From Candidatus Eiseniibacteriota bacterium (GTDB lineage Bacteria > Eisenbacteria > RBG-16-71-46): a stretch of DNA of 64,000 nt. The notes under the pieces are model-generated. The model had not been told where the DNA came from. It made no database searches and was given only the letters and a program-made list of their open reading frames with translations. This document shows, piece by piece, positions 1-62,551 of this stretch. How positions within the stretch are numbered: the first letter of the stretch is position 1; the number at the start of each line of letters is the position of its first letter. The position numbers and the translations under genes were made by a program. The stretch lies in the NCBI GenBank assembly GCA_013140805.1, contig JABFRW010000055.1, forward strand, positions 4,102 through 68,101, written 5' to 3'.

Positions 1-650
1 GGAATCGCGTCGCGAAACAGCGTGATCAAGATGCCGATCAGTCCCGACCAGCCGAGCGCTTTCGCCTGACGGGCGGCCTCGCCGCTGGTGTCGTGCAGGC
101 TCCGCAGCGTGGTCGCCGCAGCGAGCCCGGTCGGGAACGGCAGCTTCTCGATGTTGATCAGCTGACGCTTGGCCGGCACCGCGAGGAACACGCCGAGCAG
201 GGCGATGCACGCGAGCCATGGGATCAGCCACAGGCACCGGGTCTGAAAGTCGACCGGGAGTGAAGCCGGGTTGAGCATGATGAGCGCCGGAATCGCGTTC
301 GAAATGCCACCGCTGGGCATCGAGCCCGCCGCGGACGCGGCGGACTGCATCGCGTTGTTCTCGAGAATGCTGAAGCTCGGAAACCATCGCGGGAACACTT
401 TGCGCAGGGTGGCGAAGATCGCGTACGCGAGGATGCAGCACGTGATCGAGACGCCGAGCGTCCAACCAGTCTTGAGCGACACATAGACGTTCGAACACGC
501 CATGAGCATGCCGAGCAGCATTCCCATGACGACCGCGCGCACCGTGAGCTGCGGCATTCGATCGCCGGCGTAGACGTTTTCGAACCAGTGGCGCTCGATT
601 TCCTCGGGAGTGAGACCTGATTCGTCGATCGGCTGAGGAGCGATGGCCAC
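1..650 (-). CDS. OPT-family oligopeptide transporter, partial (N-terminal part; gene continues past the window start)
   Basis: Reverse-strand translation reads V/M-AIAPQPIDESGLTPEEIERHWFENVYAGDRMPQLTVRAVVMGMLLGMLMACSNVYVSLKTGWTLGVSITCCILAYAIF..., a typical OPT/YSL N-terminus with multiple transmembrane segments. It is absent from the ORF track because it runs off the window edge. GTG start near 650 inferred; the exact start is uncertain. Confidence 0.7.
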   Translation of the reverse strand, partial: MAIAPQPIDESGLTPEEIERHWFENVYAGDRMPQLTVRAVVMGMLLGMLMACSNVYVSLKTGWTLGVSITCCILAYAIFATLRKVFPRWFPSFSILENNAMQSAASAAGSMPSGGISNAIPALIMLNPASLPVDFQTRCLWLIPWLACIALLGVFLAVPAKRQLINIEKLPFPTGLAAATTLRSLHDTSGEAARQAKALGWSGLIGILITLFRDAI

Positions 651-1202
651 GGCGGCTCTCCATGAGTGCGCTGCGAGTGAGGGCGCGATGTTGCGCCCGA
701 GTCGACCCGGCTCAGGAAACAGCGGGCGCAAGGTTCGCCGATCACCTGCCCACCGCACAAGCTGTTTCGCGATAGGCACTTGGCAGCCGGGTTCGGTGCA
801 CGGGCGGGCCAATCACCGACGCTGCAGCATCGAACCCTCTCCGGATTCGAGCTGGACTCGTGCAGGTGTCGGAGTCGGCGACGGTTTCGAGCTGCGCGAG
901 CTGTTTGGATCGCTGCGTAGTTCCTACTCGGCTCGCTTAGTGACGCGCTGCCTTCGCACTGCACGCGCAGCGGGCCGTTCGCCGTGCGTGGCTCGATGCT
1001 TGCCGTAGTGCGGGTGCTCATCGACGTTCCGCTGCGTCCCATGGAAGAGGAAGGCCCGATCATGCTCCCCCGCATGAGCCGCCGAAGCGCAGACTCGCGA
1101 ACTCGAATCGTCGTGAACCCGCAGCCCGCCGCTCACGCGAGCGCCCGATCCTCGCGCCTGCTCGAGCGCGTGGGGCTGTGGCGGTTCGTAGTGCGGACGT
1201 TC

Positions 1203-5731: not shown

Positions 5732-6321
5732 GTACTACCGGTCCTTTCGACGAGTCGGCTCTTCAACTCGGCTCGTGCGCGCGACAGCCGCGACATCACG
5801 GTTCCGACCGGGATGTTGAGCGACTGAGCGATTTCCTCATACGACAGGTCCTGCACCACCCGCAGCGTCAACACGGCCTGATGCTCGGGCTTCAGAGTTT
5901 CGAACGCGGCGTTCACGCGCTGCTTCTGTTCGGCGTGCGCCAGATGTTCCGCGGGATCGTCTTCGACCCCCCATTGCATTCCAGCTTCGATCAGCGGTTC
6001 GATCGGCGTCTCGGGTCGCCGCTTGCGCGATCGAAATAACGAGAACGCCAGATTGGTGGCGATTCGCAGCAGCCACGGCTGCATCGGCTCCCCGACGCGA
6101 AAGCGATCGAGCGCGCGGTAAGCCCTCACGAAAGTCTCCTGAGACAGGTCGTCCGCATCGGCGGTGCTCCGCGTGAGGGCGTACGCGCACCGGTACACGG
6201 TGCGCTGGTAACGCCGAACGAGTTCCGCGAAGGCGGCCTGGTCCCCGCGCTGGGCGGAGCGGATCAGGTCGGCCTCGTGGCCTGCCTCACCGCTCGAACT
6301 ACGCTCCGGGGTGGCGTTCAT
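5728..6321 (-). CDS. RNA polymerase sigma-70 ECF-family sigma factor
   Basis: MNATPERS...DLIRSAQRGDQAAFAELVRRYQRTVYRCAYALTRS...LSQETFVRAYRALDRF... (region 2) and ...LSYEEIAQSLNIPVGTVMSRLSRARAELK (region 4 HTH). ATG at 6321; the ORF-track N-terminal extension looks non-coding. 4-bp overlap with the downstream anti-sigma gene. Confidence 0.9.
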   Translation of the reverse strand: MNATPERSSSGEAGHEADLIRSAQRGDQAAFAELVRRYQRTVYRCAYALTRSTADADDLSQETFVRAYRALDRFRVGEPMQPWLLRIATNLAFSLFRSRKRRPETPIEPLIEAGMQWGVEDDPAEHLAHAEQKQRVNAAFETLKPEHQAVLTLRVVQDLSYEEIAQSLNIPVGTVMSRLSRARAELKSRLVERTGST

Positions 6322-6383: not shown

Positions 6384-7139
6384 CTAGCCCAGATCCAGCG
6401 CGAGCGCGAAGGTCGCCTCGTAGCCGGCCCGTGACCGGGTCGGGGCGATGAGGAGCTGCGACCCGCCCTGCCGAAACAGCCCGTCGCGCGAGTTCCGCAA
6501 CTCGCGTACACCGCGCGCGGCGTAGGGCGCGAGCTTGTGGACGCGGTCGGTCACTGCGTCGTCGAAGTAGACCTGACTCGTGAACTCGTGTCCGCGCGCT
6601 GCGTCGGGTTCGGTGCGCACCTTGAAATGGATGTGCACCGCGCGCCCGCGGTACCAGCCAGGATAGATGGTCGTGAAGCGCGCACGACCCTCGGCATTCG
6701 TGAGTTGATGACCACGGAGGAACTTCTGCCCCGCAGTGTCGAACTCGGAGTCCGCCACGTCCGAGTATGCGCCGCGTGCGTCGCAGTGCCACACGTCGAC
6801 CCGCGCGCCCGGCACCGCCCGGCACGTCGCGCCGGACAGCCGCGTGACGTCGAACGCGAGATCGAGTCGCGCTCCAGCGCTCAACGCCCCGGTCGAAGGA
6901 TCGGTGCGGATGTCCGAGCGCGAGAGGCGTTCGTCGATGAAGAAGGGGCCCTCGGTCTGTTCGGGGCGAACGATGCAGCGCGGCAGCCCCTCGGCTTGCG
7001 AGCGAGCGAGCGGATCGAACGGCATCCCGGCGGCCAGCGAGCCCGCGGTCACTCCGAGCAGCGTGAGCACTTCGCGGCGGGTGAACAGCCTTCCTACCGG
7101 AACATCGTCATCGTGCATGGCTCCCCCCCAGGCGTTCAT
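6384..7139 (-). CDS. Intradiol ring-cleavage dioxygenase family protein with Tat signal
   Basis: Twin-arginine signal TRREVLTLLGVTAGSLAAG. Core GPFFIDERL...GARVDVWHCDARGAYS...FLRGHQLTNAEGRARFTTIYPGWYRGRAVHIHFKV matches the protocatechuate/catechol dioxygenase family. Sits immediately upstream of the ECF sigma gene on the same strand. Confidence 0.8.
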   Translation of the reverse strand: MNAWGGAMHDDDVPVGRLFTRREVLTLLGVTAGSLAAGMPFDPLARSQAEGLPRCIVRPEQTEGPFFIDERLSRSDIRTDPSTGALSAGARLDLAFDVTRLSGATCRAVPGARVDVWHCDARGAYSDVADSEFDTAGQKFLRGHQLTNAEGRARFTTIYPGWYRGRAVHIHFKVRTEPDAARGHEFTSQVYFDDAVTDRVHKLAPYAARGVRELRNSRDGLFRQGGSQLLIAPTRSRAGYEATFALALDLG

Positions 7140-7445
7140 CGTCCAGGCTTCGAAGCGTCGCGTGTTTCATGCGGTCCCAACTCTACTCCTCTGACCACCT
7201 GCACCTCTCGTCTGTTACGACCCTGTCGGCGATCCTTACAAGTCCATGGAGATTCCTGCTCATGCATTCGAACGCTCGCTCGGTGGCGGGTACGTAGCCG
7301 CCTCGTGTTGCGCGGGTTTGGTGTTACGAGGCGGGCGGGCACACCAGTTGCTCAACCAGGTGGGATTCGTTTGCTCGCAGGGCCGACCAATCAGGGGGAG
7401 ATCGTGCTTTCGACCGGGAGGACGCCGGAGCAGCCGTCGTTCGAA

Positions 7446-10355
7446 ATGGACTTCAAGGTTGTTACATGGCGCTGGCGGGTTCCGGGATCGTGGGTCGTGA
7501 TCGCCTCGCTCGGGCTCGCGCTGGCCTCGCCGGCGATCACCCGCGCGGCCTCGTTCGAGCCCACCGTCATCTACCCGATTCTCGGCGATGTCGCTACTGG
7601 CTCGCCCGTGGTCGGCGACCTCGACGAGGACGGCCGCCTCGACGTCGTCGGACAGGATCGCACGCTGCCCGGCGTCGCGCTGTGGATGAGCTCCGCAGCT
7701 GGACCGCTCGTCGAGGGTCCGCACCTCGCGATCTCGGGATGCGTGAGCTTCAAGCTCGCGCGCGTCGACAGCGATGCACACTTGGACCTCGTGGTCATGC
7801 GATCGGCTCCCTCGCCGAGAGTCGAAGTGTTTCGCGGGCTCGGTAACGGCAACTTCATGCCGGGAGTCGAATCGCTGCTCACCACCCTCCCGGCGGGATG
7901 GTGTGTCGGCGAGGTCACCGGCGACGCGAGCCTCGACCTGGTCGCAGTCGGCACGGCCTCGTTCGATATTTTGAGCGGCAACGGAAGCGGAGGCTTCACA
8001 CCCCTGAGCACCACGCAGATTCCCGCCGGCTACGGCCCGTCGGTCGTCGCGGATCTGAATGGCGACGCGCAGTCGGAGATCGTACTGAGCCGCGCCCGCT
8101 ATGACGACGGGGCTGCGACCGTGTTGGTCGTTCGCGACGACGTGATCTCGGGATGGGTCGTCGATCAGTCGCTGCCGGGGCCCGCCTGTCTCTCGATCTC
8201 GTTCACGGTGCGCGACCTCGACATGGACAACCGCCCCGACATTCTCGTCGCCAGCGAATGCGGCGGCGCGGAGCTCTACTGGAATCAGGGCGACGGAACA
8301 TTTGGCGCGACAACGCTGGCGCTCGAGGCGAACCCCGACTCGCTGCTGGCGGCGAAGGCAGCGCAAGCCGCGGGCGCTCCGCTGTTCTGGAACGGTTCCG
8401 AGGCGGCAGGAGACGCGGAGCTGCTGCTGAATGCCGCGGACGAGCCGTGGGTTCCCGCGGATCTCGATGGAGATGGCCGCCCCGAGCTGGTACGTACCGC
8501 GCGCAGCGTGGGCGGTCGCCTGGGCACGGCGCGCATCCGCGCGGATCGATCCGTGGCCGAGTTCTTCGACGGAGCACTGGGCGGCAACGTGGAGAACCGA
8601 TACGGCGCCGTGCGACTCGCAGCCGGCGATGCAGACGGAGACGGTCGCGAGGAGGTCTTCGCGCTCCTGCCGGAGCCGCCCGGCGGCGGCATCTTCAAGG
8701 GACTCGCGGTCGTGACTCGCAGGCGCGGGGCTCACGTCAGCCTGCCCGAGCTCTACGCGATTCCCGCGACCGACTCGCTGATCGGAATCGGCGACGTGAG
8801 CCCGACGCCGGGGCCGGAACTAGTGTTCCGTGGCCCGGGAGGCGTGCGCGTCACGCGCGAACGTCCGGACGGCGATCTGGATCCGTTCGAAATCCTTCGC
8901 CCCGATGTTCGCGGTGCGTTGCCGCCGTTTTCGGGCGGGGGTCACCGGCTGATTGCGCTGAGCAACGGAACGATCACGACACTTGAGAAACTGATTGGCA
9001 GTGGCATGACGACGATGCTCGGATCGATCGCCGCTCCGGCCGTGATCGCCTCAGGAGATCTGAATGGCGATGGACTCACCGATGTGATCGCGCACACGCT
9101 GAGCGGCGGTGTCACTCCGTTCCTCGGCCAGTCGGGCGGTGGCTTCACGACGGCCGCCACGCTCGAGGTGCCTGGAGACGGTTGGGGAACCGCGTTTTCG
9201 CTCGGCGACCTCGATCGCGACGGACACGACGAGCTGATCGTGGGTGTCGATGGCCCCGGTGTGGATGGGATCGATTCTCTCGTGGTCTACGGTCTCGCCG
9301 GAAGCTCGGTGTTCCAGCGCAACCGTGCGATCACCTTTGGACCGTTCTCCGACAATCACGGTCCACTCCACCCTTCCTTCGTCGCAGTCGCGGAGTTCAG
9401 CGGCGACTCACGCCCCGACTTGTTGCTGAATCTCGGCGGTCCCGGTCACAGCAATCTTCGACTGCTGGTGCAGCTCGCCGACGGCTCATTCGACTTCCGC
9501 GCCTCGCCCGGACGGATCGACTCGGAAGGCTATCCCACGCCAGCCTATGGCGATCTCGATGGAGATGGCGACCTGGACGTCGCGTCGACCGGGCTGTTCG
9601 ATGGCTACAGCTCGGCGCTGCGCATTGGTTTCAACGACGGCTCGGGCGGCGAGGCCGGCAACTTCTTCACGTTTCTGCCGACCTACTACACGCGTGAGGC
9701 CTACGTCGGAGATCTCGACTCCGACGGCGCCGGCGACGTCGCGGCGTGGGTCGCACTGACCGCCAGCAGCAGCCCCAGTGTCGTCATCGCTCACGGCAAG
9801 CCACAGAACTTCCCGACCGCCGTCCGGTTCCACTGGCTCGAAGCGACTGCAGGCTCGCGCGGCGTTCATCTGCGCTGGGGCTACCAGGCGGACCCGGGAA
9901 CCCTCATGACGCTCGAGCGCTGGTCGGATTCGAGCTGGAACATTGCCGATACGCAGGTGGCCTCGGGCTCAGGAAGTGCCGAGTTCACGGATTCCCATGC
10001 TGCTTCGGGAGCAAGCCATCGATATCGCGTGCTGTACGTGGTGAATGGCAAGTCGCTCACGAGCCCCGAAGTCGTCGTGACGCTCAGGCGGCAGGCGATC
10101 ACGCTGCGCGTCCTCGATAGCGCCCGGTCGAGCAGTTCGCTTCGACTCGCGCTCGACTCTCTGCAGCCTGGTCCTGCGCGACTCGATTTGTTCGATGTCG
10201 GCGGTCGGCGGATCGCCGAGCTTCGAATGCACGCCACAGCTCCGAGCCAGACCGTCGATTGGTCGCTCCCGGGATCGATGGCGTCAGGGCTCTACTGGAT
10301 CTCGCTCGATCAGTCGGGCGAACGTGTCAGCACCAGGGTCGCAATCGCGAAGTAA
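7446..10355 (+). CDS. Secreted FG-GAP repeat beta-propeller protein with T9SS C-terminal domain (paralog of 1203..4082)
   Basis: In-frame ATG at 7446 gives signal peptide MDFKVVTWRWRVPGSWVVIASLGLALASPAITRAA. Many DxDxDG loops (GDLDEDGRLDVVG, ADLNGDAQSEIV, DLDMDNRPDILV, DLDGDGRPELV, GDLNGDGLTDVIA, GDLDRDGHDELIV, GDLDGDGDLDVAS). C-terminus ...VDWSLPGSMASGLYWISLDQSGERVSTRVAIAK is T9SS-CTD-like. The ORF-track 5' extension (6537..7445) overlaps the dioxygenase gene on the other strand and is rejected. Confidence 0.8.
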   Translation: MDFKVVTWRWRVPGSWVVIASLGLALASPAITRAASFEPTVIYPILGDVATGSPVVGDLDEDGRLDVVGQDRTLPGVALWMSSAAGPLVEGPHLAISGCVSFKLARVDSDAHLDLVVMRSAPSPRVEVFRGLGNGNFMPGVESLLTTLPAGWCVGEVTGDASLDLVAVGTASFDILSGNGSGGFTPLSTTQIPAGYGPSVVADLNGDAQSEIVLSRARYDDGAATVLVVRDDVISGWVVDQSLPGPACLSISFTVRDLDMDNRPDILVASECGGAELYWNQGDGTFGATTLALEANPDSLLAAKAAQAAGAPLFWNGSEAAGDAELLLNAADEPWVPADLDGDGRPELVRTARSVGGRLGTARIRADRSVAEFFDGALGGNVENRYGAVRLAAGDADGDGREEVFALLPEPPGGGIFKGLAVVTRRRGAHVSLPELYAIPATDSLIGIGDVSPTPGPELVFRGPGGVRVTRERPDGDLDPFEILRPDVRGALPPFSGGGHRLIALSNGTITTLEKLIGSGMTTMLGSIAAPAVIASGDLNGDGLTDVIAHTLSGGVTPFLGQSGGGFTTAATLEVPGDGWGTAFSLGDLDRDGHDELIVGVDGPGVDGIDSLVVYGLAGSSVFQRNRAITFGPFSDNHGPLHPSFVAVAEFSGDSRPDLLLNLGGPGHSNLRLLVQLADGSFDFRASPGRIDSEGYPTPAYGDLDGDGDLDVASTGLFDGYSSALRIGFNDGSGGEAGNFFTFLPTYYTREAYVGDLDSDGAGDVAAWVALTASSSPSVVIAHGKPQNFPTAVRFHWLEATAGSRGVHLRWGYQADPGTLMTLERWSDSSWNIADTQVASGSGSAEFTDSHAASGASHRYRVLYVVNGKSLTSPEVVVTLRRQAITLRVLDSARSSSSLRLALDSLQPGPARLDLFDVGGRRIAELRMHATAPSQTVDWSLPGSMASGLYWISLDQSGERVSTRVAIAK

Positions 10356-50835: not shown

Positions 50836-51714
50836 TCAGCGCCCGCCGTTCTCCACGCGCACGCACTGCTCGAGCACGTTTCCGGCGACTTCCATACGGT
50901 AGTCGCTCTCGGAACGGATGTCGTCGATCGGTGTGAGGTCGCGCGCCAGCGCCGTGCGAGCGGCCGCGATGTCGGCGGCGCGACCGCGAGTCCCGAGCAG
51001 CGCCTGCTCGGCGGCACGCGCACGCTTCGGAACCGGCGCCATGCTGCCGTAGGCGATCCGCACGTGGTCGAACGCACCATTGCGACCGCGCCGCAGCAAC
51101 GTTGCGACCACGACCTTGGAGATACTCTGGGCGCGCCGCGTGCCGACCTTGCGAAAGAACGCACGCGCGCGTGGTGGCGACCATGGAATGATGACCGCGA
51201 CGATCAACTCGTCCGCCGCCAGCGCGAGCCGGCGATAGCCGAGGTAGAAGTCGTCGAGCGCCAGCGTACGGTCGCCACGAACCGAGCGCACCTGCACCAG
51301 CGCGTCGTGCGCGAGCAGCACCGGGAGCGAGTCGCCGGCCGGTGAGGCGTTCGCGATGTTGCCGGCGATCGTCGCGCGTTCCTGAATCTGCCACGCTCCG
51401 ACTTCACGCGCTGCGGCTGCCAGCGATGGCAATCGGCGCCGGATCTCGCGATGCTCGCGGAGCTGTCGGAAGGTCGCGAGCGCGCCGATCGTGACCGCCG
51501 CGCGTCCCACCCGCACACCACGCAGCCCGCGCAGCGACGACAGGTCGAGGTAGCGCCGCGCTTCGAGCGTGCCGGCGTTCAGATAGACGAACAGGTCGGT
51601 GCCGCCCGCGAGCGGCAGCGGTCGCAGCTCGGGGTCGTCGACAGCGAGCGACTGCAGGGCGTGATCGAGATCGCGCGGGCGAACGACTTCGAGCTGCGAG
51701 AGCGGCGCTTTCAC
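50836..51714 (-). CDS. Xanthine dehydrogenase family FAD-binding (medium) subunit
   Basis: ...LAGGTDLFVYLNAGTLEARRYLDLSSL...ATIAGNIANASPAGDSLPVLLAHDALV... (FAD_binding_5 plus CO-dehydrogenase flavoprotein C-domain). GTG at 51714 overlaps the 2Fe-2S subunit stop (GTGA). Confidence 0.8.
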   Translation of the reverse strand: MKAPLSQLEVVRPRDLDHALQSLAVDDPELRPLPLAGGTDLFVYLNAGTLEARRYLDLSSLRGLRGVRVGRAAVTIGALATFRQLREHREIRRRLPSLAAAAREVGAWQIQERATIAGNIANASPAGDSLPVLLAHDALVQVRSVRGDRTLALDDFYLGYRRLALAADELIVAVIIPWSPPRARAFFRKVGTRRAQSISKVVVATLLRRGRNGAFDHVRIAYGSMAPVPKRARAAEQALLGTRGRAADIAAARTALARDLTPIDDIRSESDYRMEVAGNVLEQCVRVENGGR

Positions 51715-52304
51715 CGCACACGGCTCTTGCGACGAGCGGGCGATACCTTGCGCGCAGGCTTCGCGCTTGCGGGCGTCGCGCGTGCGGGCTTCGCCGTCTT
51801 GAGCGTGGCGGCGGCACGCACCGCGTCGATGATCTTTTCGTAGCCGGTGCAGCGGCACAGATTGCCGGCCAGTGCTTCGCGCACCTGATCGGCGCTCGGC
51901 ACGCGTCCCTTCGATTGGGCGAGCAGTGCGGAGGCGCTCACCAGCATGCCGGGCGTGCAGATGCCGCACTGAGCGCCACCCATGGTGACGAACGCCTGCT
52001 GGAGTGCCGTGAGCCTGGGCCCCTTCGCGAGGCCTTCGACCGTGACGATCCTGGCCCCCTGGCACTGGACCGCCGGCACCAGACACGAGTTCACCGGCGC
52101 GCCGTTGAGCAGCACGCTGCACGCACCGCACTCGCCTTCGCCGCAACCTTCCTTGCTGCCAGTAAGCGCCAGGTCTTCGCGCAGCACGTCGAGCAGGCGC
52201 TTCATGGGTGGCACGTTCACTCGGCGCGAGCGCCCGTTGACGGTGAAGGTGAGGGTCGTGCGCGGCGCGCCGGCCACGGGCCTGGTGCCGCGAGGCGGAG
52301 TCAC
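51711..52304 (-). CDS. (2Fe-2S)-binding small subunit of the xanthine dehydrogenase family
   Basis: LTFTVNGRSRRVNVPPMKRLLDVLREDLALTGSKEGCGEGECGACSV...QCGICTPGM...NLCRCTGY, both [2Fe-2S] cysteine clusters. Confidence 0.9.
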   Translation of the reverse strand: MTPPRGTRPVAGAPRTTLTFTVNGRSRRVNVPPMKRLLDVLREDLALTGSKEGCGEGECGACSVLLNGAPVNSCLVPAVQCQGARIVTVEGLAKGPRLTALQQAFVTMGGAQCGICTPGMLVSASALLAQSKGRVPSADQVREALAGNLCRCTGYEKIIDAVRAAATLKTAKPARATPASAKPARKVSPARRKSRVR

Positions 52305-54616
52305 TTCACGCGCTCCGTGGCTCGCAGCGCGCGCAGCACCCGCTCGGGGGTCGCCGGAATCTCATCGAGCCACACGCCGGTCGCGTGCGCGATCGCAGCC
52401 AGCACTGCCGGCGCCGGCCCGTCCATCGGCATCTCGCCGACGCCCTTGGCGCCTTGCGGTCCGTGCGAGTACGGATTCTCGACCAGCAGCGTGTGGATGG
52501 GCGGCGCGTCCATCGAAGTCGGAATGATGTAGTTCGTGAGCTGGTGATTCCACACCCGGCCGTCGCGCCACCGCACTTCCTCGGTCAATGCCCAGCCGAG
52601 TGCTTGCAGTGTTCCGCCCTCGATCTGCCCTTCGCAGAGCACCGGATGGATCGCCTTTCCGATGTCCTGGGCGGTGACCACGTTCAGCACCTGGACCTCT
52701 CCGGTGTCGAGATCGACCTCGACCTCGACACTGCACGCTGCGTAGCCGAACACGCCATACGCGTCGCCGGTGTAGTTCTCGTCGCTCCAGCGGATCTTGG
52801 GGGGCTTCAAGTACTCCTCTTCGACGCGCAGCGCGCCGTGCGCGGTGAGGTGTCGTTTCGCCGCGCGGCGAAAGCCCTCGTCGCCGGCGTAGTCGCCGAG
52901 CTTCGAGCGCATCCCGCGTGCGCAACGCTCCACCAACCCACCCACCACCATGAGCGTGCGCGAGGCGACCGTCGGTCCACTGTCGGGCACCCTCGCAGTG
53001 TCGGGGTTCTCGATCACCACCAGTTGCGGACTCACGCCGAGCGCGTCGGCCGCGAACTGCGCGAAGATCGTATTGGTGCCCTGACCGATCTCGGTGCTTC
53101 CCGCCAGCACGCGCGGTCGTCCGTCCGCCGTCAGATCCATCGCGGCGCGCGAGGCGAGCCTCACCTCGCCGCTGCCGGTGAAGCCGGCGCCGTGATAGAC
53201 GAGCGACATCCCGATGCCGCGACGCAAGCGACGACTCTTTGCCCCGCGACGCTCCGCTCGCGCCGCCGCGGCGTTGGCACGCGGGAAGTCGCGACGCTTG
53301 GCCTTCCAGCCGGCGTGTGCCGCAGTCTGCTCGAGCACCTCGTGAGCACTCACGCTCTCTTCGAGCACCTGGCCGGTCGGTGTGACGTCTCCGATCACCA
53401 CCGCGTTTCGGCGACGCAGCTCGACCGGATCGAGCGAGAGTCGCTCGGCGATCGCATCCAGGTGTCGCTCCATCGCGAACTCGGTCTGCGGCGCGCCGAA
53501 GCCACGGAACGCACCGTTCGGGGGCGTGTTGGTTGCAACCGCGCGCGCGCGGATCCGGATCGCCGGGTGACGGTAAGGACCGCCAGCGTGAATGGCACCA
53601 CGCGACAACACCACCGGCGAGAGCGTCACGTAGGCACCGCCATCCATCACCACGTCCATGTCGGTACCGAGCAACCGGCCGTCGCTCGCGACCGCGGTGC
53701 GACAGCGGATCACGGCCGGGTGCCGCTTGGTGGTCGCCGCGATGTCTTCGAGGCGGTCGTAGACGATCTTGACCGGACGCCCGCTCTTCCACGCCAGCAA
53801 CGAGGCGTGCGCCGCGATGATGCTCGGGTACTCCTCCTTGCCGCCGAATCCGCCGCCCGTGACGGTCTGCGCGACGCGCACCTGATCACCGGCGAGTGCG
53901 AACGCGCGGCACAGCGCCTTGTGCACGTAGTAGGGGCACTGAAGCGAGCCGCGCACGTAGAGCCCGCCATCCGGCAGGCGCTCGGCGAGCATCGCGTTGT
54001 TCTCGATGTAGAGCTGCTCCTGATGACCGCAGCGGTACGTGCCTTCGACCACGATCGCGCCGGGTGTGCGGAACGCAGCATCGAGATCACCGCGCGCGAT
54101 CACGATCTCCTTGAATACGTTGTCGTCGCCAAAGATCACGTGCTTGCGCGCGAGCGAGTCCTCCACCGTGAGCACCGGCTCCAGCGGTTCGTATTCGATC
54201 GACACCGCGCGCAACGCTGCCTCCACGCGCTCGGCACTCTCGTGCGCGAGCAGCAGTATCGGCTCCTCGGCGTGCCTCACCTCGTCCACGACCAGCAGCG
54301 GCTGATCGTCCACGATCAGCGCGACCAGGTTCTCACCCGGAATGTCGCGCCAGTCGGCGACCGTGACACCGCTCCAGTCGAACGCGGGATCGAGCGTGAT
54401 CTTCTTGGTTCGTCCGCGAGCGATCGTGGAGCGCACGGTGCGCCCGTGCAGCGCTCCCGGCGCGGCAACGTCGTCCAGGTAGAGCGCCCGGCCGGTGACC
54501 TTCTCGTAGGCTTCGAGCTTGGGGATCGAGGTGCCGATGGAGCGCGTCGCACCGGACTCAGACGAGCGACGGGGCAATGGGCGAGAGCGAGAAGCGGCCG
54601 GAGCGGTGCGGGGCAT
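52301..54616 (-). CDS. Molybdopterin-binding large subunit of the xanthine dehydrogenase / aldehyde oxidase family
   Basis: 771 aa; N-terminal a/b-hammerhead (KLEAYEKVTGRALYLDDV) and molybdopterin-binding domains (...GGGFGGKEEY...). The three subunits are translationally coupled in L-S-M order. Confidence 0.85.
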   Translation of the reverse strand: MPRTAPAASRSRPLPRRSSESGATRSIGTSIPKLEAYEKVTGRALYLDDVAAPGALHGRTVRSTIARGRTKKITLDPAFDWSGVTVADWRDIPGENLVALIVDDQPLLVVDEVRHAEEPILLLAHESAERVEAALRAVSIEYEPLEPVLTVEDSLARKHVIFGDDNVFKEIVIARGDLDAAFRTPGAIVVEGTYRCGHQEQLYIENNAMLAERLPDGGLYVRGSLQCPYYVHKALCRAFALAGDQVRVAQTVTGGGFGGKEEYPSIIAAHASLLAWKSGRPVKIVYDRLEDIAATTKRHPAVIRCRTAVASDGRLLGTDMDVVMDGGAYVTLSPVVLSRGAIHAGGPYRHPAIRIRARAVATNTPPNGAFRGFGAPQTEFAMERHLDAIAERLSLDPVELRRRNAVVIGDVTPTGQVLEESVSAHEVLEQTAAHAGWKAKRRDFPRANAAAARAERRGAKSRRLRRGIGMSLVYHGAGFTGSGEVRLASRAAMDLTADGRPRVLAGSTEIGQGTNTIFAQFAADALGVSPQLVVIENPDTARVPDSGPTVASRTLMVVGGLVERCARGMRSKLGDYAGDEGFRRAAKRHLTAHGALRVEEEYLKPPKIRWSDENYTGDAYGVFGYAACSVEVEVDLDTGEVQVLNVVTAQDIGKAIHPVLCEGQIEGGTLQALGWALTEEVRWRDGRVWNHQLTNYIIPTSMDAPPIHTLLVENPYSHGPQGAKGVGEMPMDGPAPAVLAAIAHATGVWLDEIPATPERVLRALRATERVK

Positions 54617-54643
54617 TGACGGAATGTAGCTGCTCCAACCCTT

Positions 54644-55191
54644 CTAAGGCGACCTCCAGAACCCGATCGAGCCCGCGGGCACGCCCGACCCTGCGTTCGC
54701 CTGACCGCAAGCCGCCATCACGAGCGATCCGTCCGGAAGCTCGATCGCGTCGGGCGAAAGCACGCGCAGGCTGTTCCAACTTCCGAGCACCGGGCTGAGC
54801 ACCGGACCGTTTCCCATGCGTGTCCACGCGACGCCGTCGTCGGGCGATAGATCGGTGCGCCGGAGCGAGACTACGAACGGCCCTCGGCATCGAACGCCGT
54901 CATCATGCCGATCGCCGGCTCGACGAAGCCTGTGTCGCGATAGCTCAGGTAGAAGAGTCGCAGCGCGCCGCTCGCTCAGTCGCGGACCAGGCACGGATCG
55001 CCCATGCCGAAGCAATCGGCAGCCGGGCAGGGCGAGGTCGCCATCGCCGACTGCGGACCGATCTCACTCCACACGACTCCAATCGGATCGGTCGGCGATG
55101 GGCGAATGGGATCGTCGGAACCACCGCCGGCGAGCGCGAGTAGCAGGAACGTGAGCCACGCGCGATGAGGGTTTGAGACTCGCACCGCCAC
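54644..55191 (-). pseudogene. Degraded fragment of a secreted beta-propeller glycoside-hydrolase/BNR-like gene (two overlapping frames)
   Basis: ORF 54976..55191 carries a signal peptide (MAVRVSNPHRAWLTFLLLALAGGGS). ORF 54644..55015, in another frame, carries ...DGVAWTRMGNGPVLSPVLGSWNSLRVLSPDAIELPDGSLVMAACGQ. Far too short for an intact enzyme. Confidence 0.35.
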
Positions 55192-55346
55192 AGACGAGGG
55201 GAGGTGATCCAGGTCAGCCAGACCGCCTGTTCCGGTCGAAATTCTTTCGGCCTGTGCTGTTTTCGCTGGCCGCGCCCCGATTTCGGTGCTGAACTCTCGG
55301 CCTCACCGAGGCAAAGATCGACGGTGCCGGTTCCGATAACCCGCGC

Positions 55347-57230
55347 ATGCGATGCCTCCTGTGTTTCACCGTCGTTTCCATGCCGCTGCTCCTGTCGATG
55401 CCCGCAAGCGCGAAGCGTGCTCCCCGGATCGAATCGCCATTCTGGGCGAACGCGCATCCACTCGGAGTCCCTGGCGCAGGTCCGATCGAGTTCCATGAAC
55501 AGACCGAAGGCTTGGGCTTCGTGCGGCTGCATGTCGATATCGACTCTGCTCGGGCGGCGAGGCTGAACGCCGCTGGGCCCTGGGAATACTGCTTTCAGTA
55601 CTGGTTCCGGTCCGAGTGCGCGACTCCGAACTCGGACCCCCGCCCCGCGGCGTCACGCTTCCGAATTCCGTACCACGGAGACAACGAGCCCATCTGGGAG
55701 CAGTTGTTCGACTCGCGGTCGCCCGAAGAGATGATCGTGAGCGAGGGCTACGACCTCGTCGCCGGCACGGTGCTCGAGTCCGACTCGATCGGGGTGAATC
55801 GCCACCCGCCGGGTTGCCGAGTTCGGGTAGACGAAGTCTTCAACGGAGAAGTTCGCCCGGGCCGGGAACTGCGAGTGCGCTGGCGCCCGACGCCACTCTT
55901 CCTGCTGTGTGGCACCGGAGAGGATGCCCACGTCGCGCAGTGGGGACGCACCGCGCTCCCCGGCCCGGTTGTCGGCGCGCGATGGATCTCTGCGGGCGTG
56001 CGGTCGGCGAATGGTCAGGAGTGGATCAGCTTTGAACGCCTCCGCTGGATGCACGCGGACTCGCTACGTGACTACTTCCGGCAGGAGTCGAGTTCCTGGA
56101 CACGCGCGCTTCGAAGAATGCGCAGGGAGTTCGATGACTTGCTCGGCCCCGGAATCCGACAGCTACGACGGGACCACGCCGAGCGGGCCGCGCAGGCGGT
56201 CGAAGAGGAACGGAGGTGGCTCGACACGGCCGAACATCTCGCGGCAGATGCGGATCTGCGGAGGTTGTCGCTCGCTGCGGACCAAATTGCGATCGGAGAG
56301 TTGACCCTGCCGGACTTTCCGACTCGACGGGACGCGGTTCTGCGCGTGACCGAGCATCTCGCAGGCTTTCGGGCGGTCGAAGCGGAGTCGACGCTGCAGC
56401 TGTTCGCCGCGCAACGCGAGGACTCGGTGGTCTCCTTCTGGAGTCGCCGACCCCCGGACTTGCGCCCCGGGCCCGATTCGGGCCGACCCGTCCGTTGCAT
56501 CGCGTTTCTGTGCCGATCGCTGATGCCGGTGTGGGCCGGCGAGCCGCGGCCTGCCTACCGATTGGTCGACGGCAGGAGTGGATTGCTGTTGGCCGACGCG
56601 GAAACGGTTCAGCGACTTCGACGGATCCTGAAGTCGGCGCGAACGGCTTCGGGAGTACGCCGCGAAGTCCGGCCGCAAGTCCTTGGCACGGGTTCGACGA
56701 TCGCCGACTCGGAGCTCGGAAGCGTCGCGATCAAGTTCACGCCGCTGAACGATCCGTCGAGCCCCACACGACGCGCCCGAACGCTGATCGTGACGTCGCT
56801 TCTCAAGGCGGTCGAAGGGGGAACAGGCTGGTTTCTCTCGCGGGCAGCGCCGTTCGTCAGCTATCGCAGCGACTTCTCGGTCCCCAACCGGACGTTCGGG
56901 ATCACTCATTCGGAGGTCCGCAGCCTGCTTGATTCGCTTGCAACACTGCAGGGAGTGGGTGCTCGCGGCATCGCGCCGAACTGGAATCTCAGTATCTCGG
57001 TTCGAACGGTGGCGAGCGGAAACGAAGCGGAATTCGAACTCACGCTCGACGAGGATCAGATCCCTCAGCTCGGAAGGATCTTTGCGAGAGTGCTCAGGGC
57101 GGGCCCACTTCCGCCAAGTTCTGAAGGTGCGGTGTTCACGAAAGACGTTCGGACGATCAACATCGAGGCGTGGTTGGAGTCGATCGGACACGGCGCGCTC
57201 GAAGCCTTCGCCGTGGCTCGAGCTCAATAG
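55347..57230 (+). CDS. Orphan secreted protein, 627 aa, no recognisable domain; lower-GC, atypical codon usage
   Basis: Signal peptide MRCLLCFTVVSMPLLLSMPASA. Coding periodicity is clear, but third-codon-position GC is well below that of neighbouring genes (local GC about 57-60%). The overlapping minus-strand ORF 56163..57254 looks spurious. Confidence 0.6.
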   Translation: MRCLLCFTVVSMPLLLSMPASAKRAPRIESPFWANAHPLGVPGAGPIEFHEQTEGLGFVRLHVDIDSARAARLNAAGPWEYCFQYWFRSECATPNSDPRPAASRFRIPYHGDNEPIWEQLFDSRSPEEMIVSEGYDLVAGTVLESDSIGVNRHPPGCRVRVDEVFNGEVRPGRELRVRWRPTPLFLLCGTGEDAHVAQWGRTALPGPVVGARWISAGVRSANGQEWISFERLRWMHADSLRDYFRQESSSWTRALRRMRREFDDLLGPGIRQLRRDHAERAAQAVEEERRWLDTAEHLAADADLRRLSLAADQIAIGELTLPDFPTRRDAVLRVTEHLAGFRAVEAESTLQLFAAQREDSVVSFWSRRPPDLRPGPDSGRPVRCIAFLCRSLMPVWAGEPRPAYRLVDGRSGLLLADAETVQRLRRILKSARTASGVRREVRPQVLGTGSTIADSELGSVAIKFTPLNDPSSPTRRARTLIVTSLLKAVEGGTGWFLSRAAPFVSYRSDFSVPNRTFGITHSEVRSLLDSLATLQGVGARGIAPNWNLSISVRTVASGNEAEFELTLDEDQIPQLGRIFARVLRAGPLPPSSEGAVFTKDVRTINIEAWLESIGHGALEAFAVARAQ

Positions 57231-57240
57231 TCCTTCTCCC

Positions 57241-57987
57241 CTACAACGCGACATCCCGGTTCACATCCTTGTAGTAGAGGTATCTCGACGGGGCACTCCC
57301 GGTGGCATAGAACGACTGCGGGCAGTAGGGCCCCATCCAGATGAAGTCACCCGCCTTCACCTCGCGCCATGTGTCGCCCAGGTAGTAGAGCCCCTGCCCT
57401 TCGAGCATCACGAGGCCGTGCTCCATGACGTGAGTCTCCGTCACGCCGAGTGAGAACCCGGGAGGAAACGTGAAGATGTTCATCTCCATGTCGAACGACG
57501 GTTCCACTGGCAGCAGCTTCTTCAGCAGCAGTTCGGTGAACCCGTTGAAGACCTCACCCTTCATGTCGTGCTCATTGCCGACTACTTCATGTGCCGCGAG
57601 CCCTGCGTGCGGCTGATAGCGCTTCTTGATCCACGTCACAGCCGCCGCGTCGCGCGCGCGCAGCTCGAATGAGGAGCCGGGCGCGAGGAATGCGAAGCCG
57701 CCGGGTGCGAGCGAGTGCTGGCGGCCGCCCACCGTCAGCTCGACGTTTCCCGAGATCACATAGAAGAACGCCTCGATACCGGCATCCAGAATGTGATGAC
57801 CGCCGCCCTTCGGCTGCAGATCGAGCCGGTACTGAGCGAAGCGCGCACCCATCGCGGGCGCGGTCAGGATTCGGACCGCGGTCTGCTCCCAGCCGGGCAG
57901 CGTGCTCTCGGGAATTCCGTCGGGCGGAAGGATCGCGAAGTTGCGAGCGACGACGGCGCGGCTCGTGACGAGGCCCGACTGCGGCAT
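57241..57987 (-). CDS. (S)-ureidoglycine aminohydrolase (bicupin)
   Basis: ...FAILPPDG...YVISGNVELTVGG...DMEMNIFTFPPGFSLGVTETHVMEHGLVMLEGQGLYYLGDTWREVKAGDFIWMGPYCPQSFYATG matches the UGlyAH/AllE bicupin family. ATG at 57987. Confidence 0.8.
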   Translation of the reverse strand: MPQSGLVTSRAVVARNFAILPPDGIPESTLPGWEQTAVRILTAPAMGARFAQYRLDLQPKGGGHHILDAGIEAFFYVISGNVELTVGGRQHSLAPGGFAFLAPGSSFELRARDAAAVTWIKKRYQPHAGLAAHEVVGNEHDMKGEVFNGFTELLLKKLLPVEPSFDMEMNIFTFPPGFSLGVTETHVMEHGLVMLEGQGLYYLGDTWREVKAGDFIWMGPYCPQSFYATGSAPSRYLYYKDVNRDVAL

Positions 57988-58037
57988 GACGGCTCCCCTG
58001 TTGTAGTGTGCGCGGCTCAACCGTTTGAGGAGATGCC

Positions 58038-59387
58038 ATGCGCACCGTGATTCGACCCGAGCACTCGCGCGACCTGCTCGCGCGGCTCGCCGAGGCCAAT
58101 CAGAAGTTCGCGGCAATGTATCCCGGCGACCGGCTCGACCGCCAGCCCGTGCACACCGTCTACGGCGGCGCGCAACTGTTCACCGCCGACACCACACGCA
58201 AGCTCGGAGCGGTCGCGGTTCGCACGCTCGAGGAGTACGCGCCCGACGCGGCGACGCTCGCGAGAGCGGTCGGCCTCGAAGGCGACTCGGCCTTTCAACG
58301 CACGGTCTACGAGCGCGTAAGAGCCAAGCTCGAGCACGATCCGATCGAGGACTTCCGCATCGACTTCGAGGACGGCTACGGCTTCCGTCCCGACGCCGAG
58401 GAGGACCACGACGCAGTCCGCAACGGCGAAGAAGTCGCGCGCGGCATGCAGGAGCAACTGCTGCCCGGCGCGATCGGCATTCGGATCAAGCCGTACACCG
58501 AGGAGCTGCACCTGCGATCGATTCGCACCCTCGACCTCTTCCTGAGCACCCTGCTGGCGCAAAGCGGCGGCAAGCTGCCGTCGAACTTCTGCGTGACGCT
58601 GCCGAAGATCACCTCGCCCGCTCAGGTCGAGGCGTTTGTCGGCATGCTCGCGATCATCGAACGCGAACACGGGCTCGTCGCGGGATCGATCCCGATCGAG
58701 CTGATGGTCGAGACCACGCTCAGCATCTTCGACGCCGAGCGGCGCGTGGCACTGCCGGCGCTGATCGCCGCGGCCGGCGGTCGCGTGCGCGGCGCTCACT
58801 TCGGCACCTACGACTACACCGCGAACTGCAACATCACCGCGCGCCATCAGCAGCCGCAGCATCCGGCCTGCGACTTTGCGCGCCACGTCATGCAGGTGAG
58901 TCTCGCCGGGACCGGCGTGACGCTGTCCGACGGCGCGACCACGGTGATGCCGGTCGGTCCGCACCGCGCCGCCGCCGGCCAGTCGCTGACCTCGAAGCAG
59001 CTCGACGAGAACCGCCGCGCCGTCCATCACGGCTGGCGCGTGCACTTCGACGACGTCCGCAGTTCCCTGCGCCACGCCTACTACCAGGGCTGGGATCTGA
59101 ACCCCGCGCAGCTGCCTTCGCGCTACGCCGCGGTGTTCTCGTTCTTCCTCGAGTCACGCGCCGAGGCCGCGGCACGACTGCGAGCCTTCGTCGACAAGGC
59201 GGCGCAGGCCACCCTGCTCGGGCAGGTGTTCGACGACGCAGCGACCGGCCAGGGCCTGCTCAACTTCTTCCTGCGCGGGCTGTCGTGCGGCGCGATCACC
59301 GAAGACGAAGCACTCGCGACCGGCGTGACACTCGAAGAGTTTCATGGCCGCAGCTTCGTCAAGATGCTGAAGGGCCGGGACGCCTGA
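58038..59387 (+). CDS. Unassigned 449-aa protein with DxED motif, possibly a CitE/HpcH/malate-synthase-like TIM-barrel lyase
   Basis: RIDFEDGYGF... resembles the D-x-E-D metal/substrate motif of the citrate lyase beta / malyl-CoA lyase / malate synthase superfamily. Divergent from the ureidoglycine aminohydrolase gene and preceded by a GAGGAG RBS. Family assignment is tentative. Confidence 0.45.
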   Translation: MRTVIRPEHSRDLLARLAEANQKFAAMYPGDRLDRQPVHTVYGGAQLFTADTTRKLGAVAVRTLEEYAPDAATLARAVGLEGDSAFQRTVYERVRAKLEHDPIEDFRIDFEDGYGFRPDAEEDHDAVRNGEEVARGMQEQLLPGAIGIRIKPYTEELHLRSIRTLDLFLSTLLAQSGGKLPSNFCVTLPKITSPAQVEAFVGMLAIIEREHGLVAGSIPIELMVETTLSIFDAERRVALPALIAAAGGRVRGAHFGTYDYTANCNITARHQQPQHPACDFARHVMQVSLAGTGVTLSDGATTVMPVGPHRAAAGQSLTSKQLDENRRAVHHGWRVHFDDVRSSLRHAYYQGWDLNPAQLPSRYAAVFSFFLESRAEAAARLRAFVDKAAQATLLGQVFDDAATGQGLLNFFLRGLSCGAITEDEALATGVTLEEFHGRSFVKMLKGRDA

Positions 59388-61026: not shown

Positions 61027-62208
61027 CTACTCCCCGTGCGCGCCGTGGGCGATCCAGCGCGCGAGCAGGTCACGCTCTTGCGGCGTCATGCCGGTCTGGT
61101 TCGCGAGCGGCATGGTCTGCGTCTCGACGGCGCGCACGCGAATACGTTCCGCGAACTTCACGATGCTCGCGGGGTCGTCGAAGCTCACGCCGCCGGGCGC
61201 GGGCCCGAACGTAGGCTCGACCGGATTCGACGAGTGGCAATAGACGCAGCGCGAATGCACCACGTTCTTCACCTCGGAGAAGCTCGGCGGGGCACCACTC
61301 GCCCGGGCACCGCGTGCGCGCGCCGGTGGCGCCGTCATCACCAGCACGATGCCGAGCGAGACCGCGGTCGACGCCATCGCCCATGCGCGAGTGGCACGGC
61401 TGCCGATCATCAGATGCCGCACCGACGCCCCGAACACGATCAGAAGGCACAGCACCACCCAGTTGAGCGCGTGGCCGTAGGTGCCGGCAAAGTGATTGCT
61501 CAACATGATGAACAGCACCGGAAACGTCATGTAGCTGTTGTGGACGGAACGGCGTTTGGCGGCCCTCGAGTGTTCCTGATCGGCGGGCCGTCCGGCCCGG
61601 GTGGCCTCGAGCATCGCGGTCTGCGAAGGCAGGATCACGCCCCACACGTTCGCCACCATGATCGAGCCCATCAGCGCACCGACGTGCAGGAACGCCGCGC
61701 GACCGCTCAGCAGATGGCACATCGCGTAGGTCACGCCGCCGAGCAGCGCGAACGAGATCGCCGTTGCCGGCCAGCCGATGCGCCCGAGCGGCGAGCGCCA
61801 CAGCAGGTCGTAGACGAACCAGCCGCCGATCAGCGTCGCGACACCGATGATCACACCGGTGCGCGCGTCAATCCCCGAGACGCGAGGATCGAGCAGATAC
61901 ACACCGCCGGTCAGGTAGTAGACGACAATCAGCAGCGCCACACCCGTCATCCAGGTGATCGCGGCTTCCCACTTGAACCAGTGCAGCACCGGCGGAATCT
62001 CATTCGGGCCGAGACGCCGTCGCTCCACGTGATAGAAGCCGCCGCTGTGCACCATCCAGATTTCGCCCTCGACGCCCTCGCGAGGTTCGGCGGGTTTCTC
62101 GAGCGAGCCGTCGAGCCAGATGAAGTAGAACGAGCTGCCGATCCATGCGATTCCGGCGATCAGATGGGACCAGCGCAGCAGCAGATTGAGCCAGTCGTAC
62201 GGAGTCAC
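61027..62208 (-). CDS. puuD: Urate hydroxylase PuuD (membrane DUF989 domain + cytochrome c)
   Basis: MTPYDWLNLLLRWSHLIAGIAWIGSSFYFIWLD... with multiple TM helices and a C-terminal heme site CVYCH. Confidence 0.8.
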   Translation of the reverse strand: MTPYDWLNLLLRWSHLIAGIAWIGSSFYFIWLDGSLEKPAEPREGVEGEIWMVHSGGFYHVERRRLGPNEIPPVLHWFKWEAAITWMTGVALLIVVYYLTGGVYLLDPRVSGIDARTGVIIGVATLIGGWFVYDLLWRSPLGRIGWPATAISFALLGGVTYAMCHLLSGRAAFLHVGALMGSIMVANVWGVILPSQTAMLEATRAGRPADQEHSRAAKRRSVHNSYMTFPVLFIMLSNHFAGTYGHALNWVVLCLLIVFGASVRHLMIGSRATRAWAMASTAVSLGIVLVMTAPPARARGARASGAPPSFSEVKNVVHSRCVYCHSSNPVEPTFGPAPGGVSFDDPASIVKFAERIRVRAVETQTMPLANQTGMTPQERDLLARWIAHGAHGE

Positions 62209-62209
62209 T

Positions 62210-62551
62210 TCAGCTGCCCCGATACGTCGAATAGCCGAACGGGCTCACCAGCAGCGGCACGTGATAGTGCTGATCGGCGTCGCGCACTTCGAACACGATC
62301 GGGATCTCGCTGTAGAACGACATCATGCCGAAGCTCCGAAAGTAGTCTCCGATCACGAACGTGATGCGCCAGCTGCCGGTCGCGGGGCGCTCGCCCTCGG
62401 TCAGCAGGTCCTTGAGTCGGCCGTCGGCATCGGTGGCGCCGCGAGCCGCTTCGATCCAGTCCCCGTCGCGGTACTTGTCGAGTCGTACCTGCAGGCCGGC
62501 CGCGGGGCGACCGAGCGCCAGGTCGAGCACATGGGTCGTGATCGCGCTCAT
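62210..62551 (-). CDS. 5-hydroxyisourate hydrolase (transthyretin-like)
   Basis: MSAITTHVLDLALGRPAAGLQVRL...YHVPLLVSPFGYSTYRGS, including the C-terminal YRGS signature that distinguishes HIUase from transthyretin. Confidence 0.9.
   Translation of the reverse strand: MSAITTHVLDLALGRPAAGLQVRLDKYRDGDWIEAARGATDADGRLKDLLTEGERPATGSWRITFVIGDYFRSFGMMSFYSEIPIVFEVRDADQHYHVPLLVSPFGYSTYRGS

Follow-up and report, generated by a model that had tools for sequence, protein, structure and literature searches.

Small flexible genomic islets are described by conserved flanks and by variable cargo at the same junction, with exported proteins and decaying pseudogenes among that cargo and with mobility genes, tRNA anchors or repeats, while a horizontally acquired genomic island is recognized by its absence from the same locus in relatives together with clearly atypical composition and codon usage and with signatures of mobility. 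Here, we describe a 2,624-bp insert (positions 54617 to 57240) in a 64,000-nt window, that is, the whole stretch of DNA that was analysed, from contig JABFRW010000055.1 of assembly GCA_013140805.1, a metagenome-assembled genome (MAG) of Candidatus Eiseniibacteriota. The insert separates the gene for (S)-ureidoglycine aminohydrolase from the genes of an XDH-family enzyme and contains just two elements: ORF627, an intact open reading frame (ORF) for a putatively secreted protein of 627 amino acids (aa), and the remnant of a putatively GH43-related beta-propeller gene. It shares with genomic islets the conserved flanks, the variable cargo at one junction, the exported-protein cargo and the decaying pseudogene, and, like an acquired island, it is absent from the same locus in relatives. 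In contrast, it has no recognizable integrase or transposase, no tRNA anchor and no meaningful direct repeats, and it does not occupy a classic integration site: it interrupts an operon at a point where the genes are translationally coupled.

A second comparison concerns the protein that ORF627 encodes. The netrin (NTR) domain consists of one beta-barrel with N- and C-terminal helices and a characteristic cysteine pattern (PMC3516229). The fold predicted for ORF627, an OB-type barrel with an N-terminal and a C-terminal helix, corresponds to that of NTR/TIMP-like modules.

We consider it probable that an ancestral aminohydrolase–XDH operon received the 2.6-kb stretch as a lineage-specific insertion and that the stretch represents a divergent gene pair, in which one member, the GH43-related gene, is dead and the other, ORF627, remains intact and would encode an exported, binding-type protein without a role in purine metabolism. 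The insert and its flanks are arranged as follows:

52301 to 54616, minus strand: XDH-family molybdopterin-binding (Mo) subunit, left flank (Pfam MoCoBD_1, MoCoBD_2 and Ald_Xan_dh_C)
54617 to 57240, no strand: the insert, from the start codon of the XDH Mo subunit to the stop codon of the ureidoglycine aminohydrolase
54644 to 55191, minus strand: decayed gene, in two frames, for a putatively GH43-related beta-propeller protein of five blades; its start resembles a signal peptide, and it is matched to protein P0002
55192 to 55346, no strand: divergent intergenic region of 155 bp between the remnant and ORF627; judged from gene order, a candidate position for the promoter of ORF627 and for one that would serve the XDH genes through the remnant
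55347 to 57230, plus strand: ORF627, intact gene for a putatively secreted 627-aa protein of an uncatalogued family (ATG start, 627 codons)
57241 to 57987 (approximate), minus strand: (S)-ureidoglycine aminohydrolase, right flank (TIGR03214, E 1.6e-91)

The junction in related genomes

The junction was compared across 80 loci anchored on DUF6986, taken from species-representative genomes and including six Eisenbacteria loci. In L001, L003 and L076, the insert is absent and the aminohydrolase gene runs straight into the XDH Mo-subunit gene, with stop and start codons overlapping in L003 (TGATG, ~9036–9081) and L076 (ATGA, ~5891–5942) and with a gap of ~88 bp in L001. The same junction holds 2.97 kb in L002 (6124–9089) and 2.54 kb in L035 (6623–9158), and in L004 no XDH gene was present within the 10 kb fetched upstream. 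In L002, the insert codes for one protein with a lipoprotein-like leader and a second whose leader is signal-peptide-like, neither of which matches Pfam; in L035, it codes for an aspartyl protease with a signal-peptide-like leader, a further protein of that sort and a PadR regulator. No similarity was detectable among the inserts of the window, L002 and L035. None of the 80 loci contains a relative of ORF627 or of the remnant; homologues of the former never occur at this locus, and none of known function is conserved there. The Eisenbacteria relatives are distant, with 65–72% amino-acid identity in DUF6986, L001 being the closest available genome (72%).

A single junction inside the operon thus carries an unrelated insert in each of the window, L002 and L035.

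The edges of the insert are tight. Only 27 bp separate the stop codon of the remnant from the XDH start, and ORF627 and the aminohydrolase gene converge with their stop codons 10 bp apart (57230–57241). A first-pass annotation, made from the sequence alone, had proposed an island at this place, and to the extent that the stretch is missing from three relatives, that proposal holds. No terminator-like hairpin was found between the converging stops. The transcripts of ORF627 and of the aminohydrolase gene would each run antisense into the other gene.

In the ancestral state, the aminohydrolase gene would have run into the XDH genes as one operon. Insertion would have brought in the divergent gene pair, from a source that was probably compositionally similar, and its GH43-related member, which reads toward the XDH genes, would since have decayed. 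The XDH genes would thereby be cut off from read-through from the aminohydrolase promoter, and their transcription would start within or upstream of the remnant, in 55192–55346. For the genome, this changes little: an accessory insert splits a purine-catabolic operon, and the locus itself is ordinary genome plasticity. Three points weigh against this interpretation. The promoter scan of 55192–55346 detected nothing, the scan being for sigma-70-like promoters only and not informative for this phylum. Because the source is a MAG, assembly could conceivably have introduced the stop codon and frameshift seen in the remnant. Finally, with the closest genome at 72% DUF6986 identity, insertion in this lineage and loss in the relatives are inseparable, and the event is undatable.

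Loss is the core of one alternative, according to which the junction ancestrally held accessory genes, the compact state of L001, L003 and L076 arose by deletion, and the window, L002 and L035 keep different survivors. In its favour, three of the five Eisenbacteria loci with both genes have 2.5–3.0 kb at the junction, encoding proteins with hydrophobic leaders, and loss of content is under way in the window, as its decaying gene shows. However, survivors of a common content are not evident among three inserts without mutual similarity, and the stop/start overlap in two genomes has the look of an old, selected operon junction. A gain in the lineage of the window is favoured because L001, the nearest genome, is compact, and we consider the deletion scenario quite unlikely.

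ORF627 and its protein family

ORF627 was described in the first-pass annotation as a clear ORF of 627 aa with a signal peptide, as lacking any recognizable domain, and as an orphan. The first two statements agree with our analysis: the frame has an ATG start, 627 codons and a hydrophobic leader, as read from the sequence, and searches of Pfam, NCBIfam and PDB sequences with ORF627, its halves and the profile of alignment A1 (ORF627 plus 17 long homologues) returned no match, that of Pfam extending to E<=10. The third must be withdrawn. Word-indexed searches of 5.8 billion proteins, with either ORF627 or the A1 profile, gave no match besides the protein itself, which appears as 'MAG: hypothetical protein HOP12_05295 [Candidatus Eisenbacteria bacterium]', 508 aa from Met120. 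When 1.84 billion cluster representatives were searched exhaustively with HMMER, 62 homologous ones emerged at E<=1e-3, of which 27 reach E<=1e-10 and 13 reach E<=1e-30, so ORF627 is not an orphan, and a word-indexed search without hits does not prove orphan status. These homologues cover residues 51–616, the full-length ones at 25–36% identity; the best, P0003 (715 aa), has 36% identity over query residues 51–583 (E 8.5e-68), and P0004 (710 aa), also among the best, aligns to 53–616. Those that were looked up come from metagenomic or unnamed sources (JGI, Logan and ENA records, two from NCBI assemblies), carry the label 'hypothetical protein' or nothing, and form clusters of 1–8 sequences.

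Long spurious ORFs are common in the window, one of 744 aa lying opposite the XDH gene, for example, which raises the question of whether ORF627, too, stays open by chance in DNA of high GC content. Its codon score is low, and AlphaFold with the single sequence gave a predicted local distance difference test score (pLDDT) of 32, which is unusable. On the other side, frame +0 is the best of six by codon log-likelihood across the full ORF and in almost all of its 300-nt windows, the first 119 codons included, the alignment-based model is confident, and full-length homologues share conserved motifs and a matching domain order. As a spurious ORF, ORF627 is ruled out by these existing homologues, and we give chance next to no weight. 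As judged from sequence, ORF627 is a genuine gene of a rare, uncatalogued bacterial family.

The ATG at 55347 is supported, and a start at Met120 appears too late, because homology begins at residue 51 and the ORF opens with a leader-like segment. The public start of HOP12_05295 probably lies 119 codons too far downstream, hiding the export signal (55347–55703, plus strand). The N-terminus reads MRCLLCFTVVSMPLLLSMPASA followed by KR, with a mean Kyte–Doolittle value of ~2 over the first 15–20 residues and a predicted mature N-terminus at K23, and hydrophobic N-terminal leaders are also seen in the homologues of A1. The protein would thus be exported by Sec to the periplasm or the cell surface. 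Three family members carry extra CarboxypepD_reg domains at the C-terminus and one carries FlgD_ig there, in keeping with a place in the cell envelope or outside the cell.

With A1 as input, AlphaFold produced a model of mean pLDDT 74.5 and a predicted template modelling score (pTM) of 0.57, in which domain A reaches a pLDDT of ~90. The predicted parts of the protein are the following:

55347 to 55412, plus strand: predicted Sec signal peptide, residues 1–22 (cleavage between ASA and K), from reading of the sequence and the hydrophobicity profile
55419 to 55700, plus strand: partial N-terminal domain, residues ~25–118, with low model confidence (pLDDT 40–60)
55710 to 56054, plus strand: domain A, residues 122–236, predicted NTR/TIMP-like OB barrel with the most conserved motifs of the family (D146-S-x-G-T...P-P, G167, W179, P207, G210)
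56055 to 56255, plus strand: long charged helix linking the barrels, residues 237–303 (64-residue helix 238–301 in the model), Arg/Glu-rich and of variable length in A1
56256 to 56651, plus strand: domain B, residues 304–435, predicted second barrel, secondary-structure order H-E-E-E-H-E-E-E-H
56694 to 57227, plus strand: C-terminal alpha/beta domain, residues 450–627, with conserved LLDSL and GRERxFExTLD

Conservation in A1 is concentrated in the blocks DLVVATVV..DSxGT...PPxV..RVxEVLxG, PCxVGE..IRRW..TP..GPxVGSRWILGG and RWxYSDSL, followed, beyond the Arg/Glu-rich segment of variable length, by REDSxxxRW, RCIAFL, YRxVDPxxGLLLAD, LLDSL and GRERxFExTLD. The invariant positions are D146, G167, W179, P207, G210 and F387, and D146, the only charged residue among them, lies in the D-S-x-G-T...P-P stretch between the first two predicted strands of domain A. 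No catalytic-type pattern of His, Cys, Ser or Glu is conserved in A1. In the model, domains A and B both consist of a helix, three strands, a helix, three strands and a helix, and hhalign aligns the two over 63 columns (probability 68%, E 4.9e-5). The protein reads as holding two tandem NTR-like barrels, of which domain B is probably an ancient duplicate of domain A. For the C-terminal domain, fold searches gave no specific structural match, and a viral structure library gave only generic OB matches.

The N-terminal region is variable across the family. About eight members carry an N-terminal domain of ~190 residues, which others lack entirely; residues 51–119 of ORF627 match only its second half (P0003 residues 112–190), and no trace of the missing half was found upstream of ORF627 in any frame. 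No paralogues were found with the A1 hidden Markov model in the window or in all fetched loci. Many weaker homologues are small proteins of 130–190 aa that share the motif D-x-G-A-T-N-x-x-P-P...EVLRG...W.P.PH.VDW; in most of them, the first conserved domain comes after a hydrophobic leader. Such stand-alone domain-A proteins are P0034, P0036, P0040, P0043, P0044, P0048, P0050, P0052, P0057 and P0061, and an 855-aa lysine-rich protein, P0031 (NCBI metagenome assembly GCA_021733565.1), carries domain A twice. Neither the small proteins nor P0031 have a Pfam match, and no conserved neighbours of the stand-alone proteins were found that might give a functional clue.

The closest structural relatives of ORF627 are all binding modules, with agrin NtA, the NTR domain of PCOLCE, the C345C domains of complement C3 and C5, the NTR domain of meteorin and N-TIMP as comparators; the search tools did not report which query residues were matched. 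At the level of sequence, the picture differs. There is no match to NTR (PF01759) or TIMP (PF00965) for ORF627 at E<=10 or for the 17 homologues at E<=0.01, the family core has no Pfam or NCBIfam match at all, and the A1 profile retrieved no NTR or TIMP chain from PDB. The NTR cysteine pattern is also absent: cysteines occur only at positions 3, 6, 82, 91, 157, 188, 384 and 389, two of them in each barrel (157 with 188 in the first, 384 with 389 in the second), and only C188 (in PCxVGE) and C384 (in RCIAFL) are commonly conserved in A1. The resemblance to NTR/TIMP, as predicted by the model, is one of fold, and the protein falls outside the families as they are defined by sequence.

Because no catalytic pattern is conserved and the structural relatives are all binding modules, ORF627 would be a non-enzymatic, extracytoplasmic binding or scaffold protein. 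The conserved D146...P-P loop of domain A is its likely contact site, and the long charged helix may act as a spacer or oligomerization element. A more specific proposal, which we offer tentatively and consider unlikely as it stands, is that the family constitutes an uncatalogued prokaryotic NTR/TIMP-like module, in tandem in exported proteins of 510–760 aa and alone in leader-bearing proteins of ~150–190 aa that share D-x-G-A-T-N-x-x-P-P...EVLRG, and that it serves as an extracellular inhibitor or high-affinity binding domain, the counterpart of a fold studied almost only in animal extracellular proteins.

Narrower still is the idea that ORF627 inhibits secreted metalloproteases in the manner of a TIMP, whether these belong to the bacterium itself or to its competitors. 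For inhibition, TIMPs depend on Cys1, a free cysteine at the N-terminus of the domain, which enters the active site of the protease. This mechanism is unlikely here because both barrels of ORF627 are internal, with the predicted mature N-terminus at K23 and no free cysteine at a domain start. The fold-level resemblance notwithstanding, domain A holds only C157 and C188, neither TIMP nor NTR is matched in Pfam, and no protease gene is among the recurrent neighbours of the homologues; the idea is very doubtful.

The wider value of ORF627 is that it reveals a rare exported bacterial protein family without a Pfam or NCBIfam model, in which the best-conserved domain is predicted to be an NTR/TIMP-like barrel. 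Should this domain turn out to serve in binding or inhibition, a fold described chiefly in animal matrix and complement proteins would gain a bacterial branch, and the domain would merit a family entry.

Homologues of ORF627 occur in six different contexts (L081–L086), on contigs of 69–73% GC, and have no common neighbours; no purine-catabolic gene lies beside any of the six. In L082 and L084, the downstream genes show no relationship to one another or to the ORF627 family. A part in the purine pathway was also considered for ORF627 and rejected, given the lack of co-location in L081–L086 and in the 80 DUF6986 loci.

The decayed propeller gene and the composition of the insert

The second element of the insert begins at 55191 on the minus strand with a hydrophobic leader, VAVRVSNPHRAWLTFLLLALAGGGS..., and had been described in the first-pass annotation as a two-frame remnant of a secreted beta-propeller hydrolase-like gene. 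This description is borne out by a match to P0002 and by the location of the lesions. The first frame meets an in-frame TGA at 54978–54976 and runs past it to a stop at 54873–54871, a frameshift lies near 54892–54870, and the second frame extends from ~54883 to the stop at 54646–54644. Once joined, the translation matches P0002 (269 aa) at 38% identity (E 2.7e-20), with a YL(S/G)YRDTGFVEPAIGMM stretch that is nearly the same in both. Against the P0002 locus (L087), only 2639–2776, 2948–3154 and 3473–3613 are matched, and ~318 bp (~106 codons) are gone internally. P0002 itself finds the five-bladed propellers of GH32-N, GH130 and GH117 in PDB (E 4e-7 to 2e-5). Its precomputed Pfam label, PF22847 (Glyco_hydro_43_rel), is marked faint, and direct hmmscan of the remnant and of P0002 gave no match, for P0002 even at E<=10; the assignment to the GH43-related family is accordingly loose. 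No P0002-like gene was found beside XDH elsewhere.

The remnant resembles GH43-related propellers (PF22847; structurally GH32, GH117 and GH130) through its match to P0002 and differs from them in that its reading frame is broken by a stop, a frameshift and the loss of ~106 codons. It is probably a decayed gene for a secreted protein of the beta-propeller, glycoside-hydrolase-like kind. With a metagenome-assembled source, it might instead be an intact gene broken only by assembly or sequencing errors, and its 5′ half does keep a coding signal (frame score +0.175). However, this signal is gone in the 3′ half, and the missing stretch would take ~106 residues out of a closed propeller. Because there are three independent lesions, a pseudogene is far likelier than an assembly error, and we hold the latter to be very improbable.

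The same annotation had set the GC content of the island at 57–60% against about 70% in the flanks, had noted a shift in codon usage and had taken the composition as a sign of horizontal acquisition. On computation, the GC content of 54620–57240 is 65.2%, that of the whole window is 67.4% (standard deviation of 400-bp windows, 2.7 points) and that of ORF627 is 64.9%. Values of 59–61% occur only in 56800–57600, a dip that spans the convergent 3′ ends of ORF627 and the aminohydrolase gene and includes the 3′ half of the latter, a native gene (GC 61.3%). The magnitude of the contrast was therefore overstated, but the region is not uniform with the rest: same-length windows have 67.5 ± 1.4% GC, which places the insert at the 5.5th percentile, and its tetranucleotide deviation is in the top 3.3%. 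The shift in codon usage likewise stands in part. Of the 24 genes given a leave-one-out codon score, ORF627 ranks last (0.179), with a GC content at third codon positions (GC3) of 0.747, but its score is continuous with those of two other genes in the window, for FG-GAP secreted proteins, whose codon scores are 0.22 and 0.21 and whose GC3 values are 0.746 and 0.751:

921 to 4082, plus strand: very large FG-GAP repeat protein with a weak match to a type IX secretion system (T9SS) C-terminal sorting domain (region GC 63.7%, GC3 0.746)
6435 to 10355, plus strand: very large FG-GAP repeat protein

Positions 1–4000, which encode an FG-GAP repeat protein, are the only other region of the window that is comparably deviant. 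Low GC3 seems to be typical of exported accessory proteins in this genome. The compositional shift of the insert is real but modest, of ~2 GC points, and it resembles that of other exported-protein genes of the genome.

These figures bear directly on the view, taken from composition in the earlier annotation, that the insert is a foreign island recently acquired from a compositionally different donor. Its absence from L001, L003 and L076 and its outlying GC, tetranucleotide and codon scores are in keeping with such an event. Nevertheless, the GC difference is ~2 points and not 10–13, ORF627 has the same GC3 and codon score as the two FG-GAP genes, and the lowest-GC stretch reaches into the native aminohydrolase gene. 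Composition is poor evidence for a foreign origin because the deviation is small and common to other secreted-protein genes. The insert contains just ORF627 and the remnant, without a recognizable mobility gene (integrase or transposase); no tRNA gene occurs in the whole 64-kb window, no Rfam element matches in the insert, and the repeats flanking it are only short and at chance level, at boundaries as tight as 27 and 10 bp. Homologues of ORF627, moreover, come from similarly high-GC contigs, some of which have a domain repertoire also seen in this genome. We regard a compositionally different donor as unlikely; a lineage-specific insert from a compositionally similar source is the reading we retain.

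The purine-catabolic neighbourhood

The setting of the insert is indeed one of purine catabolism, as the first-pass annotation had stated, with XDH, ureidoglycine aminohydrolase and a PuuD-type urate oxidase around it:

50836 to 54616, minus strand: XDH FAD and Mo subunits
58038 to 59387, plus strand: DUF6986 protein; TMEM175 and an epimerase are also in this neighbourhood
61027 to 62244, minus strand: PuuD-type urate oxidase; an M20 peptidase is also present

The mechanical ORF of the aminohydrolase, 57241–58116 on the minus strand (291 aa, TTG at 58116), overlaps the start of DUF6986. Its real start is probably the ATG at 57987, because the TIGR03214 match begins at residue 50 of the 291-aa ORF, and this start would probably leave a divergent promoter region of 50 bp in common with DUF6986.

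The DUF6986 protein matches its Pfam family with E 7.5e-177 and has a weak HpcH/HpaI aldolase-like match. DUF6986 recurs beside purine-catabolic genes across phyla. Among the 80 DUF6986 loci, XDH subunits are present in 19–21, a PuuD-type urate oxidase in 15 (within 3 kb in 10 of these) and ureidoglycine aminohydrolase in the flanks of eight. DUF6986 may represent an unassigned step of urate or ureide catabolism.

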